Shown here: positions 56,451 through 62,181 of the stretch, piece after piece
How positions within the stretch are numbered: the first letter of the stretch is position 1
Layout of the letters: each line of letters opens with the position of its first letter
Assembly: GCA_017436035.1 (NCBI GenBank)
Contig: JAFSDV010000005.1
Span: 1,244 to 65,243, forward strand
Length of the DNA: 64,000 nucleotides
Reading direction: 5' to 3'
From: Oscillospiraceae bacterium
GTDB lineage: Bacteria; Bacillota; Clostridia; Oscillospirales; Oscillospiraceae
Notes under the pieces: model-generated
Told to the model about the DNA's origin: nothing
Seen by the model: only the letters and a program-made list of their open reading frames with translations
The model's database searches: none
Position numbers and translations under genes: made by a program

Positions 56451-56897
56451 TCAGATCGTCAGGTCGTTTTCTTCCCGAATGGACACAGCCGCAGCCAGGA
56501 CTTGGGCAACCACACTGATCACCAGACATAAAAAGGACATGATGATGACCATGAAAAACAGCGGCATATAGATGAACGCCGCCGGCAGGCAGATCAGACT
56601 GACGCCTGCACAGCACCAGCAGACGCGGCGGATGTGCCGGACGTTTTCCCGGGTAAAGACAGACAGCTTCAAAATGTGACGCAGCAGCTGGTCCAAATTC
56701 CACAGTGCCACCGCGACTACCACCGCACAGCAGTAAAAAGCAATGGTGATCGCCCGGTATTCCGCCGGAGTCAGGGCTCGGAATTGACAGTACCAGTCCA
56801 ACAGCAGGGGCAGGGTGGGCAGCAGCACTGCCAAAAGCAGTCCGATGAGTCGGTTCACCCACAGGGTTATGCGGGCAGAATATTGATTTTGTTTCAT
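56451..56897 (-). CDS. DUF2975 (YoaS-like) membrane protein
   Basis: VFTRENV and C-terminal AVSIREENDLTI; paired with the YozG-like HTH gene. Confidence 0.9.
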   Translation of the reverse strand: MKQNQYSARITLWVNRLIGLLLAVLLPTLPLLLDWYCQFRALTPAEYRAITIAFYCCAVVVAVALWNLDQLLRHILKLSVFTRENVRHIRRVCWCCAGVSLICLPAAFIYMPLFFMVIIMSFLCLVISVVAQVLAAAVSIREENDLTI

Positions 56898-57074
56898 AAA
56901 ATATGCCTCCTTATAAATGCATCATACTGCTAAAATTATCGAATGTCAATAATAAATTCAAGAAAACAAGGAAACAGAGCGCCTGCAGGGAGAGTTGACA
57001 GACTGTTCGCGAAAATGCTATAATATACAAAATTATTGCAGCAGATCGGCTGCAGAAGCGTTGGAGGGATCATT

Positions 57075-57476
57075 TTGGCGGGGATTATTTTGATCGCGGC
57101 AGCGGTTATTGTGTTTTTGGTGTCCTTTTTTCGTAAGCCGGGGCAGCCACCTCAGGAGAAGGTGACAAGCACCGGTGTGGTGGAGCAGGCGCAGGGAACA
57201 GAATCCGGGGCTGTTCAGTACACGGTTCGGTTTACCGGTGCGCGCAACCGCAGTTTTTTGGCGAGAACCGGACGTTACACCGGCAATACCGGCAAATACC
57301 AGGAAGGAAAGCTGGTGCATATCCGGTATTGGTTCGACAAAAAAGGCAGACCCGGCGTGGAGATCCTGGATGAGGAGCTGACCGCCATTTCGGAAAAGTC
57401 CCGGAACATCTCCCGGTGGTGCTTGGTTTTCAGCCCGGTCCTGCTGGTGCTGGGAATTTTACTTCTGATCATTTAA
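57075..57476 (+). CDS. Small membrane protein, TM-beta-TM (DUF3592-like)
   Basis: Two terminal TM helices around TGVV..YTVRF..YQEGKLVHIRY; TTG start after GGAGG; TTGACA-17-TATAAT upstream. Confidence 0.6.
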   Translation: MAGIILIAAAVIVFLVSFFRKPGQPPQEKVTSTGVVEQAQGTESGAVQYTVRFTGARNRSFLARTGRYTGNTGKYQEGKLVHIRYWFDKKGRPGVEILDEELTAISEKSRNISRWCLVFSPVLLVLGILLLII

Positions 57477-57560
57477 CAGGTCCGTTGACCGACTCCAAAA
57501 TCGGAGTCGGTCTTCTGTTTGTGCAAAATGGTGAAAATATAGAACACGGCATATTAGGGC

Positions 57561-57628
57561 TTGACAAAAGCAGCTGTATATGGCAATATATTGTGGAAAG
57601 CACAGCAAAAAGATACAAGATATTGTGC
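57561..57628 (+). promoter_or_regulatory. nrdD promoter with tandem NrdR boxes
   Basis: TTGACA at 57561; tggcaatatattgtgg (57581-57596) and atacaagatattgtgc (57613-57628) match acaCwAtATaTwGtg, 32 bp apart. Confidence 0.8.
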
Positions 57629-57668
57629 TTTCGGATGAAAGAATATAGAGAAAGACAGGTTAAGACTT

Positions 57669-59951
57669 ATGATTCAGAGCATCATCAAGCGCGACGGACG
57701 TGTAGTTCTGTACGATCAGAACAAGATCGCCGCTGCCATTTTGAAATCCCTGGAAGCAGCCCGTGAGGGCGATGCCGCGGATGCCGCAAGAGTGGCAAAT
57801 GACGTCCAGCGGGAGCTGGAGGGACAGTTCCCCTCTGAAGCCCCCAATATTGAAGCGATTCAGGATGCGGTAGAGCGGCAGCTGATGAACCACGGCTTCC
57901 CCGCTGCAGCCAAGGCCTACATTTTGTACCGGGCAAACCGTACCCGCGCCCGGGAGGCAAATACCGCACTGATGAAGACCATCGATGAGATCACCAACAT
58001 CGATGCCCGCATCAGTGACATGAAGCGTGACAACGCCAATATCGACGGCAATACTGCCATGGGCTCCATGCTGCAGATCGGTGCAGCCGGTGCAAAGGCC
58101 TACAATGAAATGTATCTGCTGCGCCCGGAGCATGCCAAGGCATACCGGGAGGGCGACATTCATATCCATGACTTCGACTTCTACTCCCTGACCACTACTT
58201 GCTGCCAAACAGACATTATTAAGCTCTTTAAGGGCGGCTTCTCCACCGGTCACGGCTACCTGCGTGAGCCCCAGAGTATTCAGAGCTATGCTGCCCTGGC
58301 TGCCATCGCCATCCAGTCCAATCAGAACGATCAGCACGGCGGTCAGTCCATTCCCAACTTTGACTACGGTATGGCAGAGGGCGTTGCCAAGACCTTCCGC
58401 AAGGCTTACATTCGCCGGCTGAAGGAAGCTTTGGAGGATCTGCTGGATCTGGAGGATGAGCAGCAGAGCATCTCTGCGCTGGTTGCTTCCGCGGAGGAAG
58501 CCTGCGGCACCACTGCCCGGCTGGAAAATGAACCGGACTTTGACCGCACTGTTGCGGTGAAGCTGACTGAAAAGTATGCGCTGACCCAGGATCAGGCAGC
58601 TGCCTTGATCTCCCGCTCCAGAAAGCGCGCATGGCAGAAGACCGACCGGGACACCAAGCAGGCTATGGAGGGCTTTGTCCACAACCTGAACACCATGCAC
58701 TCCCGCGCCGGTGCGCAGACACCCTTCTCCTCGATCAACTACGGCACAGACACCACACCCGAGGGCCGGATGGTCATCCGAAATGTGCTGCTGGCACTGG
58801 ATGCGGGCCTGGGCCACGGCGAGACCTGTATCTTCCCCATCCACATCTTCAAGGTCAAAGAGGGCGTGAACTACAACGAAACCGACCCCAACTATGATCT
58901 GTTCCGGCTCAGCTGTAAGGTCAGTGCCCGCCGCCTGTTCCCCAACTACACCTTCCTGGACAGTCCCTTCAACCTGCAATATTATGTCCCCGGCCGTCCT
59001 GAGACTGAAGTGGCGACCATGGGCTGCCGTACCCGGGTTATGGGTAACACCTACGATCCCACCCGTGAGATCGCATACGGCAGAGGCAACCTGTCCTTTA
59101 CCTCGATCAACCTGCCCAGAATCGCCATTGAAGCAAAGGGCGACGAGAAGGTGTTCTACGAAAAGCTGCAGGCCATGCTGGAGCTGGTTGCCCAGCAGCT
59201 GCTGGACCGCTTCGAGATTCAGGCGAGCAAGCACATCTACAACTATCCCTTCCTGATGGGTCAGGGTGTGTGGCTGGATTCCGAGAAGCTGAACAACAAC
59301 GACGATCTGCGTGAGGTGCTCAAGCACGGCACACTGTCCATCGGCTTCATCGGCCTGGCGGAGACGCTGACTGCCCTGTACGGCAAGCATCACGGCTGTG
59401 CCGAAGAAATTCAGGAAAAGGGTCTGCAGATTCTGGGCTTTATGCGCAAGTACTGCGATGACAAGTCTCAGGAGCTGAAGATGAACTTCTCCCTGTTGGG
59501 CACACCGGCAGAAGGGCTGTCCGGTCGCTTCATCCGTATGGATCAGAAGCGTTACGGCAAGATCCCCGGTGTCACCGACCGTGAGTACTATACCAACTCC
59601 TTCCACATCCCTGTTTGGTATAATATTTCCGTATATGACAAGATCCGTTTGGAAGCGCCTTATCATGCCCTGTGTAACGCCGGACACATCAGCTATGTAG
59701 AGCTGGACGGTGATACAGCGCACAATGTGGAAGCCTTTGAGTCCGTTGTCCGCTGCATGCACGACTGCGGCATTGGCTACGGCTCGATCAACCACCCGGT
59801 AGACCGGGATCCGGTCTGCGGTTATGTGGGCATCATCGGTGATGTATGTCCCCGCTGCGGTCGCCACGAGGGTGAGCAGATCGATCCGGACCGGGTAGAG
59901 GAACTGAGAAGAAAGTATCCCCAAATGCCCGCGTTTCAGGGAATTGAGTAA
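57669..59951 (+). CDS. nrdD: Class III anaerobic ribonucleotide reductase, large catalytic chain lacking the glycyl-radical loop
   Basis: ATP cone (IKRDGR), TTTCC, finger loop ATMGCRT, TPAEGL, YYTNS, Zn ribbon (DPVCG..CPRCG); ends without R.TGY. Confidence 0.95.
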   Translation: MIQSIIKRDGRVVLYDQNKIAAAILKSLEAAREGDAADAARVANDVQRELEGQFPSEAPNIEAIQDAVERQLMNHGFPAAAKAYILYRANRTRAREANTALMKTIDEITNIDARISDMKRDNANIDGNTAMGSMLQIGAAGAKAYNEMYLLRPEHAKAYREGDIHIHDFDFYSLTTTCCQTDIIKLFKGGFSTGHGYLREPQSIQSYAALAAIAIQSNQNDQHGGQSIPNFDYGMAEGVAKTFRKAYIRRLKEALEDLLDLEDEQQSISALVASAEEACGTTARLENEPDFDRTVAVKLTEKYALTQDQAAALISRSRKRAWQKTDRDTKQAMEGFVHNLNTMHSRAGAQTPFSSINYGTDTTPEGRMVIRNVLLALDAGLGHGETCIFPIHIFKVKEGVNYNETDPNYDLFRLSCKVSARRLFPNYTFLDSPFNLQYYVPGRPETEVATMGCRTRVMGNTYDPTREIAYGRGNLSFTSINLPRIAIEAKGDEKVFYEKLQAMLELVAQQLLDRFEIQASKHIYNYPFLMGQGVWLDSEKLNNNDDLREVLKHGTLSIGFIGLAETLTALYGKHHGCAEEIQEKGLQILGFMRKYCDDKSQELKMNFSLLGTPAEGLSGRFIRMDQKRYGKIPGVTDREYYTNSFHIPVWYNISVYDKIRLEAPYHALCNAGHISYVELDGDTAHNVEAFESVVRCMHDCGIGYGSINHPVDRDPVCGYVGIIGDVCPRCGRHEGEQIDPDRVEELRRKYPQMPAFQGIE

Positions 59952-59977
59952 TCAGAACATAATAGGAGGAATTGAAT

Positions 59978-60139
59978 ATGACGATCAAATCAAATAATGA
60001 GAAAATGGGTCAGGGTGTAGGCTTTGAGCGGATTCGCCGGATCACCGGCTACCTGGTCGGTACAATGGACAAGTGGAACGATGCCAAGCGTGCTGAGGAG
60101 CGGGACCGTGTAAAGCACGGCATGGGTAAGAATGCTTGA
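59978..60139 (+). CDS. 53-aa stand-alone NrdD glycyl-radical domain peptide
   Basis: Translates MTIKSNNEKMGQGVGFERIRRITGYLVGTMDKWNDAKRAEERDRVKHGMGKNA; AGGAGG SD at 59964-59969; overlaps the nrdG start. Confidence 0.9.
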   Translation: MTIKSNNEKMGQGVGFERIRRITGYLVGTMDKWNDAKRAEERDRVKHGMGKNA

Positions 60140-60644
60140 TCTTGCCGGTATTACAGGCGACAGCATCGTAGACGGTCCGGGCATCCGTACAACGGTGTTC
60201 AGTCAGGGCTGTCCCCATCACTGCAAAGGCTGCCACAATCCGGAGACTTGGGAATTTGGAGTCGGCACACCGATGGACGAGGAGACAGTGCTTCAGATCA
60301 TCCGGTCGAATCCGCTGTGCCGGGGCGTGACCTTCTCCGGCGGAGAACCCTTTGCCCAGGCGGCGGGCTTTGCCGGACTGGCACGGATGCTGAAGGAGCA
60401 TGGCTATGAGGTGGCATCCTATTCAGGCTATACCTTTGAGCAGCTGCTCGACGGAACACCGGCGCAGCGGGAGCTTTTGGGGCTGATCGATATTTTGATT
60501 GACGGACCGTTTTTGCTGGAGGAGCGAAGCCTGGAGCTGAATTTCCGGGGCAGCCGCAATCAGCGCATATTGGATGTACCGGCGTCTTTGGCAGCAGGAA
60601 AGGCTGTCAGCACGACCCAGCCTCGCTGGCTGAGCGAATACTGA
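60132..60644 (+). CDS. nrdG: Anaerobic RNR activating radical SAM enzyme
   Basis: DSIVDGPGIR, QGCPHHCKGCHNPETW, TFSGGEP and FRGSRNQR. Confidence 0.96.
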   Translation: MLDLAGITGDSIVDGPGIRTTVFSQGCPHHCKGCHNPETWEFGVGTPMDEETVLQIIRSNPLCRGVTFSGGEPFAQAAGFAGLARMLKEHGYEVASYSGYTFEQLLDGTPAQRELLGLIDILIDGPFLLEERSLELNFRGSRNQRILDVPASLAAGKAVSTTQPRWLSEY

Positions 60645-60650
60645 AAGAAA

Positions 60651-60681
60651 GGCCGCACCTTTGAAAAAGGTGCGGTCTTTT
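60651..60681 (+). terminator. nrd operon terminator
   Basis: ggccgcaccttt-gaa-aaaggtgcggtc then tttt. Confidence 0.8.
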
Positions 60682-60858
60682 GAGAGGGAAGGAAAAACGG
60701 GCCTCCAATAAGTTGATTCATATCGATATATTTGTGCTTTTTGAGCAAAAAAAGAAAAATCCAAGAAAATCAAGTGGACAAAGTTCACAAAGTGCGATAT
60801 GATATAACTGTTAATACGGTGAAGCTCCGTATGTATAGTTTACTAAGAGGTGATACCT

Positions 60859-62181
60859 ATGGCGTTCTCGTTCTTTGGTGGCATTCATCCCAAGGAAAAC
60901 AAGTGGTACGCGGAAAAACACCCGGTCTATCCGTTCCCTGAACCGGATATTCTGGTAATTCCCATGTCACAGCATATCGGCGCGCCCTGTGCGCCGTTGG
61001 TGAAAAAAGGAGACCCTGTTACAATGGGTCAGAAGATCGGCGACGGACAAGGTTTATGTGTGCCGGTCCATGCACCGGTATCCGGAAAAGTAAAGGCTGT
61101 GGAGATGCGTCCCCACACCAGCGGAACGATGATGATGAGCGTGGTCATTGAAAATGATCACTTGGATACCCTGTGCCCGGATATTAAGTCCCGCACCCTG
61201 GAGGAAGCCCAGGCACTGACCCCCGAGGAATTGATGCAGATCATCCGGGAGGCGGGTATCGTGGGTATGGGCGGCGCCACATTCCCCACCCATGTAAAGC
61301 TCAGCTCCGGACTTGGAAAGGTAGACACGATCATTGTAAACGTGTCAGAGTGTGAGCCGTACATCGTAGCCGACGACCGGCTGTGTCAGGAATATCCTGC
61401 GGAAGTGGTTTCCGGACTGCAGATCATTATGAAGGTGTTGGGGTTGGACAGCGCCCATATCGCACTGGAGGACAATAAACCTGCGGCTGCAAAGGCTCTG
61501 AAGCAGGCAATGGAGGGCAAGGACGGGATCGTGCTGGATATTCTTCCTTCTAAATATCCTCAGGGCGCGGAGAAGCAGCTGATCTATGCGGTGACCGGGC
61601 GGCAGGTGCCCTCCGGCGGTCTGCCTGCGGCAGTGGGCTGCGCCGTGTTCAACGCAGGCACCTGCAAGGCGATCCATGACGCGGTGTATGACGGAATGCC
61701 TCTGATCCGCCGGATTGTGACGGTTTCCGGTGACATTGTGATGGAGCCCAAAAACCTGCTTGTTGCCATCGGCACAAGCTTCAATGAGCTTCTGGAAGCA
61801 GTTGGACATAAGGAAAACCCCTATAAAGTGCTTTCCGGCGGTCCTATGATGGGTGCGGCACAGTACGATCTGGCTGTTCCCGTGATCAAGGGCACGAACG
61901 CGGTGACGATTTTGGGTCAGAAGAATAAGTACATTGTAGAAAATGCCCGGTGTCTCCGCTGCGGAAAGTGCATCGAGGTTTGTCCCATGAATCTGATGCC
62001 GGTACTGATCTATAAGGCTATGTATACCGGTGATACAAAAGATGTGATGGCGGTGGATCTGATGGATTGCATCGAATGTGGCTGCTGCGCCTATACCTGC
62101 CCTGCAGGTGTGCCGCTGGTGCTGGGCTTCCGGGCAGCGAAGCAGCGGGTGCGGGATGCCCAGACTGCAGCAAAAAAGTAA
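60859..62181 (+). CDS. rnfC: Rnf electron transport complex subunit C
   Basis: QHIGAP, GIVGMGGATFPTHVK, ECEPY, YPQGAEK, GGPMMG and two CxxCxxCxxxCP motifs. Confidence 0.96.
   Translation: MAFSFFGGIHPKENKWYAEKHPVYPFPEPDILVIPMSQHIGAPCAPLVKKGDPVTMGQKIGDGQGLCVPVHAPVSGKVKAVEMRPHTSGTMMMSVVIENDHLDTLCPDIKSRTLEEAQALTPEELMQIIREAGIVGMGGATFPTHVKLSSGLGKVDTIIVNVSECEPYIVADDRLCQEYPAEVVSGLQIIMKVLGLDSAHIALEDNKPAAAKALKQAMEGKDGIVLDILPSKYPQGAEKQLIYAVTGRQVPSGGLPAAVGCAVFNAGTCKAIHDAVYDGMPLIRRIVTVSGDIVMEPKNLLVAIGTSFNELLEAVGHKENPYKVLSGGPMMGAAQYDLAVPVIKGTNAVTILGQKNKYIVENARCLRCGKCIEVCPMNLMPVLIYKAMYTGDTKDVMAVDLMDCIECGCCAYTCPAGVPLVLGFRAAKQRVRDAQTAAKK

Follow-up and report, generated by a model that had tools for sequence, protein, structure and literature searches.

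A probable two-chain class III (anaerobic) ribonucleotide reductase with its glycyl-radical loop on a separate 53-residue protein in Oscillospiraceae

To our knowledge, textbooks and structural studies of class III (anaerobic) ribonucleotide reductase (RNR) all place the radical glycine in the catalytic chain, and the locus described here raises the question of whether this glycine can instead reside on a protein of its own. The locus lies in a 64,000-nucleotide (nt) stretch of a metagenome-assembled genome (MAG) of an Oscillospiraceae bacterium (GCA_017436035.1, contig JAFSDV010000005.1, positions 1,244 to 65,243 of the forward strand; hereafter the window), in which a gene for the large chain NrdD, a 53-amino acid (aa) open reading frame (ORF) carrying the glycyl-radical loop that this chain lacks, and nrdG, the gene of the activase, follow each other closely. 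The three genes look like one operon, and a promoter scan between nrdD and the small ORF revealed nothing convincing. An initial annotation, made from the sequence alone, had proposed that the locus encodes a class III RNR of two chains, the smaller of which bears the radical glycine, and our analysis supports this proposal through conservation, selection and the existence of genomes in which the split pair is the only RNR found. It is very likely that the locus encodes a working two-polypeptide class III RNR together with its activase. This reading is grounded in the gene anatomy, separate translation signals for the two ORFs, conservation, purifying selection, operon coupling and the genomes with the pair as sole RNR; binding of the two chains, activation by NrdG and catalysis are inferred from the established chemistry of the family.

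The division of NrdD between the two chains is apparent from the family models. The large chain matched PF13597 with 611 bits (cut-off 26.2) over model positions 1-531 of 562 and NF005497 with 1065.8 bits (cut-off 764) over positions 1-715 of 746, while the 53-aa ORF matched the missing model ends (533-562 of 562 in PF13597, 585-617 of 618 in NF011292 and 710-744 in NF005497). Jointly, the two co-oriented adjacent ORFs span the NrdD models end to end, and this arrangement is conserved across taxa. The RxxGY loop that a class III NrdD carries on the same polypeptide is absent from the large chain and was found on the 53-aa ORF as RRITGY, with the radical Gly24 located within FERIRRITGYLVG. PF13597 (NRDD) was the sole Pfam match of this ORF, and no homology to PF01228, the domain of the pyruvate formate-lyase (PFL) type, was found; the nrdG product matched TIGR02491 with 137 bits (cut-off 126.1 bits). 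The large chain begins with an ATP-cone (aa 4-92), and its finger loop (M451-G-C453-R-T) and the T177-C178 pair containing the partner cysteine were invariant among 52 split large chains, as were C717, C727 and C730 of the Zn ribbon. The closest solved structure to the large chain was Prevotella copri NrdD (8P23), which aligned up to residue 709, and aa 16-50 of the 53-aa protein aligned to residues 707-741 of the same structure, including Gly711. Since the radical Gly711 of the P. copri enzyme follows the structural Zn site and is part of a mobile C-terminal glycyl-radical domain (PMC11226230), the chain encoded in the window is interrupted within this domain, after the Zn site and ahead of the radical loop. 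The locus has an ATP-cone, a barrel, a finger-loop cysteine, a Zn ribbon, the RITGYLVGT motif and an adjacent radical-S-adenosylmethionine activase in common with single-chain NrdD and NrdG (8P23; phage T4 1H78, 9D3X). It differs from them in the break of the chain at this point, in a conserved 28-aa tail added to the large chain, and in a leader of about 15 aa and a separate ribosome-binding site acquired by the loop. The coordinates and anatomy of nrdD, the 53-aa ORF, its Shine-Dalgarno sequence and the overlap with nrdG, as given in the initial annotation, were all confirmed in the ORF table and the sequence (Table 1).

The junction between the two ORFs is not an assembly artefact, because Logan contigs from four public gut-metagenome runs, belonging to four studies, bridge it without indels. 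All of them cover positions 59815-60046, single contig pieces span 59724-60046, 59815-60215, 59700-60300 and 59700-60228, and the segment 59847-59994 is free of substitutions. A check of reads over the junction had been called for in the initial annotation, and the contigs of the four studies show the two-ORF junction intact. The accompanying claim that no single sequencing error can fuse the two ORFs also holds, a TAG at 59963 in the frame of the small ORF and a TGA at 59973 in the frame of nrdD both being present. The gap between the window ORFs is short (26 nt), which could favor the production of one chain via programmed frameshifting, ribosomal bypass, stop read-through or protein trans-splicing. 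However, a comparison of 51 split loci with both genes complete demonstrated that the spacer varies from 2 to 284 nt with a sequence unrelated between loci, that the small ORF occurs in all three frames relative to nrdD, and that a Shine-Dalgarno-like motif and an ATG are present ahead of the small ORF in every one of these loci. The variable spacers, the use of all frames and the conserved initiation signals therefore fit independent initiation and do not fit frameshifting, bypass or read-through, and in the window both read-throughs would meet stops. Moreover, judged from the sequence, the 28-aa tail and the 15-aa leader are far below the size of a split-intein half and have no intein junction residues, and Rfam families gave zero matches in 56800-61000 at E up to 0.1. 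Trans-splicing, frameshifting and bypass were rejected on the variability of the gap, the stops, the conserved Shine-Dalgarno sequence and ATG, and the size of tail and leader; synthesis of a single chain by any of these routes is extremely improbable.

Relatives of the 53-aa protein were numerous, amounting to 7997 sequences of 29-93 aa (E up to 0.001), the nearest of which are exactly 53 aa long, 89-98% identical and located on up to 129 contigs reaching 115 kb. A genome scan with one genome per species yielded at least 586 confirmed loci, and the layout was read in the best 80 of these, about 62 of which were split with an upstream nrdD of approximately 752-782 aa. The closest loci among the matches listed belong to Faecousia and other Oscillospiraceae MAGs, which assigns the gut bacterium of the window to Faecousia. 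Split loci within the best 80 also include those of the isolates Butyricicoccus porcorum BB10 and Allofournierella massiliensis DSM 100451, of Oscillospiraceae bacterium 42-9, of a complete Lachnospiraceae chromosome, of Clostridium sp. CAG:417 and of Mogibacterium/Anaerovoracaceae, and some are on MAGs labelled Treponemataceae or Bacteroidota. An even sampling of the order provided 396 genomes that are each at least 90% complete, of which 156 matched the peptide profile; the split form, recognized by a frame of 51-165 codons that the profile matches beginning at the leader, was present in at least 53 of the 396, and the fused form, in which the motif ends a frame of 771-949 codons, in about 60. 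The next gene on the same strand was nrdG in 47 of the 51 split loci, with a start mostly between -23 and +16 nt from the peptide stop, and because this start is mostly near or overlapping the stop, translational coupling of the peptide and the activase is probable. Residues 16-29 of the 53-aa protein were invariant in 52 sequences, and the tail of the large chain is conserved across families as EGE..x.ER/K.xEL+K.YP.MP.F.G.E. The conserved split point, Shine-Dalgarno sequence and tails that the initial annotation had suggested looking for were thus recovered across families, with the coupling to nrdG in addition.

Is the split gene under selection, or does it decay beside an intact copy? For twelve close relatives, all with a 760-aa large chain (dS about 1.1-1.5), the ratio of nonsynonymous to synonymous substitution rates (dN/dS) was 0.10 in the catalytic core, 0.11 in the 28-aa tail, 0.09 in the distal 16 tail residues, 0.29 in the peptide leader and 0.00 in peptide residues 16-47 (dS about 1.1), and on these values the tail is constrained like the enzyme core and the loop is frozen. 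The source MAG (62% complete, 1.16 Mb, 36 contigs) contains a second, intact nrdD, which encodes a single-chain protein of 723 aa from another subfamily ending in RRTCGYIGTQYWNQGRTQEIKDRVLHL. Its presence would suit an explanation in which the split nrdD is a decaying pseudogene, the small ORF a leftover and the 723-aa enzyme encoded on contig C13 the one that does the work. Such decay is contradicted by dN/dS values of about 0.1 for body and tail and of 0.00 for the peptide core, by the conservation of the Shine-Dalgarno sequence, ATG, tail motif and nrdG coupling across families, and by the single nrdG detected in the MAG, which belongs to the split operon. In addition, no RNR besides the split form turned up in three other genomes, those of B. 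porcorum BB10, Clostridium sp. CAG:417 and Oscillospiraceae bacterium 42-9, where the NRDD model detected the truncated large chain and small frames only and a class I/II model gave no match, versus 12 positives among 14 control genomes. A class I or II RNR large subunit was likewise not found in the 62%-complete MAG. The occurrence of the split pair as the sole detectable RNR of a cultured isolate argues strongly that the pair works. Owing to the strong purifying selection and to the genomes in which it is the only RNR found, the split gene is not decaying, and the pseudogene explanation is very improbable. The initial annotation had named a separate intact nrdD, as the mark of a decaying gene, among the results that would speak against it; the intact gene does exist in the MAG, but the decay is excluded by selection and by the other genomes.

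The intact NrdD in the MAG has no neighboring nrdG, and stand-alone NrdD-type glycyl proteins of about 100 aa often co-occur with fused NrdD in the order, so that the small protein might chiefly serve this intact NrdD as a reserve radical loop, with the truncated chain being secondary. However, the co-resident NrdD belongs to another subfamily and has a loop sequence clearly different from that of the 53-aa protein, the gene of the peptide invariably accompanies a truncated nrdD from its own subfamily, and genomes with the split pair only exist, all of which renders a main role as spare for the other enzyme very improbable.

The two-chain enzyme was also considered by structure modelling. The AlphaFold2 model of the large chain alone, built from a 52-row alignment, had a mean predicted local distance difference test (pLDDT) score of 83.9 and a predicted template modelling score of 0.78, with core values mostly of 80-97 and a confident barrel; confidence was low over the C-terminal part starting near residue 711 (block means 52, 54, 60, 62 and 43), where a short helix at 740-749 was predicted with low confidence and the last six residues were disordered. 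The complex was modelled in three runs from residues 110-760 of the large chain and the peptide, each entered as an alignment, and gave an ipSAE interface score of 0.78 (0.80, 0.78 and 0.77 in the individual runs) versus 0.00 for the best control; this mark is attained by 58 of 80 solved complexes and by 2 of 110 mismatched pairs. The runs had at least 80% of contacts in common, with a partner pLDDT of at least 76 and about 180 modelled contacts. On the large chain, the confident interface comprises 452-454 of the finger loop, 385-391, 613-622, 649-658 and 674-680 of the barrel, and 706-716, 723 and 727 of the Zn-ribbon region. On the peptide it comprises residues 9-28 and 34-51, with 452-454 touching within 9-28. 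In the model the loop of the peptide is placed at the finger-loop cysteine, the canonical position of the radical loop. Residues 732, 734-738, 743 and 754-755 of the tail touch peptide residues 7-15 in the model. The initial annotation had suggested that the new tails form a docking interface, and in the predicted complex this is supported for the proximal tail, where aa 732-738 meet peptide residues 13-15, but not for the distal tail, which is of low confidence.

The mechanism that we propose would assign the ATP-cone, the specificity and active sites, Cys453 and the Zn ribbon to the 760-aa chain, while the 53-aa protein would supply the last approximately 35 residues of a one-piece NrdD, namely the buried Gly24 loop and a short C-terminal surface strand. 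NrdG together with S-adenosylmethionine would abstract the C-alpha hydrogen of Gly24, and the peptide, sitting in the barrel, would exchange the radical between Gly24 and Cys453 as in single-chain enzymes. Reduction of ribonucleoside triphosphates would then proceed as in these enzymes, probably with formate. The Met-Gly-Cys finger loop suggests the formate-dependent type, an assumption that we take over from Escherichia coli NrdD.

With respect to the origin of the split, the nearest fused relatives read CGR-x-EGE-x-G-(M/I)-G-FERIRRITGY (loci L063, L067, L070, L083, L093 and L096), while the split form reads CGR-x-EGE followed by about 24 tail residues, a stop, the spacer with the Shine-Dalgarno sequence, about 11 leader residues and G-x-G-FERIRRITGY. 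Many tails begin with GE-x-(I/V)-x-(F)-ER-(I/V), echoing the GEGVGFERI of the peptide, and the small-protein profile matched the tails weakly (E 0.01-0.1 in a set of 61) over their first approximately 10 residues (GE.V.FERI). The tail had been called unrelated in the initial annotation; this does not hold for these first residues, which resemble the linker and FER(I/V) of the fused relatives and of the peptide. The resemblance hints that the junction segment may have been duplicated when the gene split, an event that probably happened once or a few times in Clostridia. That the tail might be a decayed copy of the glycyl loop was also considered, and is kept as a tentative lead. The other reading frames of the peptide DNA, inspected by eye, contained nothing tail-like.

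The tails vary among loci in further respects. Large chains of the Butyricicoccus type and related ones have longer tails in which NSDTIGYHGDPNEERDRR or NTDNCGYCGD has, by eye, the look of a degenerate glycyl loop (L071:639-2945, L079:452-2758, L091:606-2939, L045:546-2876 and L064:665-2977); the tails of the Butyricicoccus type (...TIGYHGD...EERDRR), loop-like by eye, gave no score in a profile search. In many lineages the large-chain tails end in a cysteine pair (L041, L043, L048, L049, L051, L053, L054, L056, L066, L073, L081, L082, L088, L090 and L098), as do the small proteins of L055, L071 and L079, the endings seen being FCGCE, PCDCNH, CCK and QDCACRD. Such ends recall the redox-shuttle tails of class I and II RNRs; the tail in the window is without cysteine.

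The searchable literature contained no description of a split or truncated NrdD with a separate glycyl-radical subunit, and the two-chain class III layout is undescribed there. The nearest functional parallel is provided by GrcA/YfiD of E. coli and Y06I of phage T4, which are spare parts for PFL only (PMC8683613); a 2026 review lists the formate lyases as the only class of glycyl-radical enzymes with identified spare-part proteins (PMC13450708). Similar to these proteins, the 53-aa protein is small and free-standing with the glycyl-radical loop as its sole recognizable feature, and, like GrcA/YfiD, it is presumably activated by the activase of its parent and docks into a chain without a usable loop. 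In contrast to GrcA, it is homologous to the C-terminus of NrdD (PF13597) and not to PFL, it is 53 instead of 127 aa long, and its partner is genetically truncated, which makes it a regular subunit and not a spare for a loop-bearing parent. A catalytic RNR subunit on two adjacent ORFs that jointly equal a one-piece homologue is known from the split class II RNR NrdJa/NrdJb of Pseudomonas aeruginosa (PMC4520616), where an extra C-terminal element of class II NrdJa was proposed to aid association (PMC9669993). Phage nrd genes, including some nrdD, are split by introns, inteins, endonucleases or unexplained fragmentation (PMC3653736). Compared with NrdJa/NrdJb and the phage splits, the window enzyme is of class III and broken at another point, and the detached piece is only the radical loop; unlike the phage genes, it is without intron, intein or homing endonuclease, and the nrdD splits reported in PMC3653736 are not at this break. 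The same gene position is occupied in Pseudomonas (Stutzerimonas) stutzeri ATCC 14405 by the 51-aa Pstu14405_04655, which lies between a 672-aa nrdD and nrdG and overlaps nrdG (PMC10433244). This protein was detected by mass spectrometry with 113 peptide-spectrum matches, only under oxygen limitation (PMC10433244). It was annotated as an "oxidoreductase" with a match to COG1328 and reported as a small "oxygen-sensitive reductase", not interpreted as a radical subunit (PMC10433244). It differs from the window protein in being proteobacterial and in the length of its large chain.

Several observations weigh against the reading of the locus as a working two-chain enzyme. The model score may represent recall of the solved single-chain NrdDs (8P23, 1H78), and would then indicate likeness rather than binding. 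The MAG contains an intact single-chain nrdD, and hence the split enzyme need not be essential in this organism. The genomes in which the pair is the only RNR are drafts, and the absence of other RNRs from them is based on two Pfam models. Pstu14405_04655 was likened to the window protein by length, position and the COG1328 match only, not by sequence. Finally, a quick maximum-likelihood tree built from 61 large chains trimmed at the Zn ribbon, whose rows were picked by likeness to the peptide and whose outgroup sits on a very long branch and gives a poor root, requires at least six changes between split and fused forms, with fused chains nested among split ones, and the history of the split is therefore not simple.

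A reason for the two-chain arrangement may lie in repair economy, as the initial annotation proposed, in that cleavage of the backbone by oxygen at the radical glycine would cost only the 6-kDa peptide, which would dissociate, and a fresh activated peptide would reload the 87-kDa body. This explanation is compatible with the two-chain enzyme as such, and is suggested by the analogous rescue of oxygen-cleaved PFL by GrcA/YfiD (PMC8683613), by the high mobility of the glycyl-radical domain in the homologous P. copri enzyme (PMC11226230), by extra copies of the small gene, unlinked or in tandem, in some genomes, and by the tight translational coupling of peptide and nrdG, which would match their supply. 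However, the peptide is a regular part and not a spare, the large chain having no loop of its own, and the approximately 180 modelled contacts and the buried loop speak for a firmly bound peptide that might not be exchanged; on balance, we regard repair economy as a rather unlikely reason. In its extended form, this proposal would make the 53-aa protein a consumable radical cofactor: NrdG would charge the free peptide, which docks, fragments cleaved at Gly24 would leave and a new peptide would reload the enzyme, while unlinked copies of about 100 aa and those borne by phages would serve related enzymes as true spares. We put this forward as a tentative and doubtful suggestion; if true, it would be the first case, PFL aside, of a glycyl-radical enzyme repaired by replacement.

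Additional small glycyl-radical genes were observed in several genomes. Three copies of the small gene are present in Oscillospiraceae bacterium 42-9 (G044; C7:143115, C3:10685 and C51:4233), and two or three in G179, G195 (a tandem at C7:2929 and C7:3407) and G081, some of them unlinked to nrdD and some in tandem. A separate stand-alone family of about 90 aa from the start codon, in open frames of 96-128 codons, combines an NrdD-type glycyl loop with an unrelated N-terminal half (LDVNIDGEYADLSYEFSHVPFERIRRITGY), and Pfam sees only the NRDD tail in it. Its members (L061:2821-3117, L074:233-574, L086:1295-1609, L089:289-609 and many in the 396-genome sample) do not adjoin nrdD and often occur in genomes with fused NrdD (e.g. 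G404, G405, G121, G397 and G191); this family looks more like true spare parts than the peptide of the window does. Small NrdD-type glycyl-radical ORFs without adjacent nrdD were also found in phage-like regions dense in short ORFs (L044:2600-2830 and L084:2900-3120).

Upstream of nrdD, the window carries two palindromes resembling NrdR boxes (Table 1), one of which matches the NrdR consensus with three mismatches; the window boxes are weak when taken alone. Of 52 loci, however, 44 have NrdR-like boxes at most 220 nt ahead of their split nrdD, and close relatives carry near-perfect boxes, some matching the consensus perfectly. A gene for nrdR was not found in the 62%-complete MAG. The interpretation of the palindromes as candidate NrdR boxes is suggestive. 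Downstream of nrdG follows a 443-aa protein (60850-62181, plus strand) with two CxxCxxCxxxCP ferredoxin-type motifs and GGATFPTHVKL, which appears RnfC-like by eye.

Table 1. Features of the split nrdD-nrdG locus in the window, and the second nrdD of the same MAG.
Feature	Position	Strand	Details
NrdR-box-like 16-bp palindromes (two)	57581-57596 and 57613-57628	+	Starts 32 bp apart; upstream of nrdD
nrdD, large chain	57669-59951	+	760 aa; ATP-cone, catalytic barrel, Zn ribbon; glycyl-radical loop absent
Finger-loop motif MGCRT	59019-59033	+	aa 451-455; presumed thiyl-radical Cys453
Zn-ribbon segment C717...CPRCGR732	59817-59864	+	Kept on the large chain
28-aa tail HEGEQIDPDRVEELRRKYPQMPAFQGIE	59865-59948	+	After CPRCGR; specific to the split form; without glycyl motif
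nrdD stop TAA	59949-59951		Followed by the spacer to the small ORF
Shine-Dalgarno sequence AGGAGG of the small ORF	59964-59969	+	8 nt ahead of the ATG at 59978
53-aa glycyl-radical ORF MTIKSNNEKMGQGVGFERIRRITGYLVGTMDKWNDAKRAEERDRVKHGMGKNA	59978-60139	+	Own Shine-Dalgarno sequence and ATG; TGA at 60137-60139
Codon of radical Gly24	60047-60049		
nrdG, radical-S-adenosylmethionine activase	60132-60644	+	170 aa; ATG at 60132; 8-nt overlap with the small ORF
GC-rich terminator-like hairpin	60653-60675	.	Directly past nrdG; scored on the minus strand; palindromic stem
Second nrdD (single-chain)	G000 contig C13:23822-25639; locus L001:1495-3666	-	nrdG not adjacent

For genome annotation, the locus implies that small genes of this type, which are below many ORF cut-offs, are discarded by length-bounded surveys, one of which dropped sequences under 400 residues (PMC9531940). 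The split enzyme would offer a natural system for studying the recognition, by an activase, of a glycyl loop detached from its enzyme, would allow the coupling of the mobile radical domain to allosteric control to be studied, and would let one ask whether radical loops exchange after oxygen damage. In these gut anaerobes, which form a widespread group, the enzyme responsible for all DNA precursors would very probably have its essential radical on a separate protein of 6 kDa.

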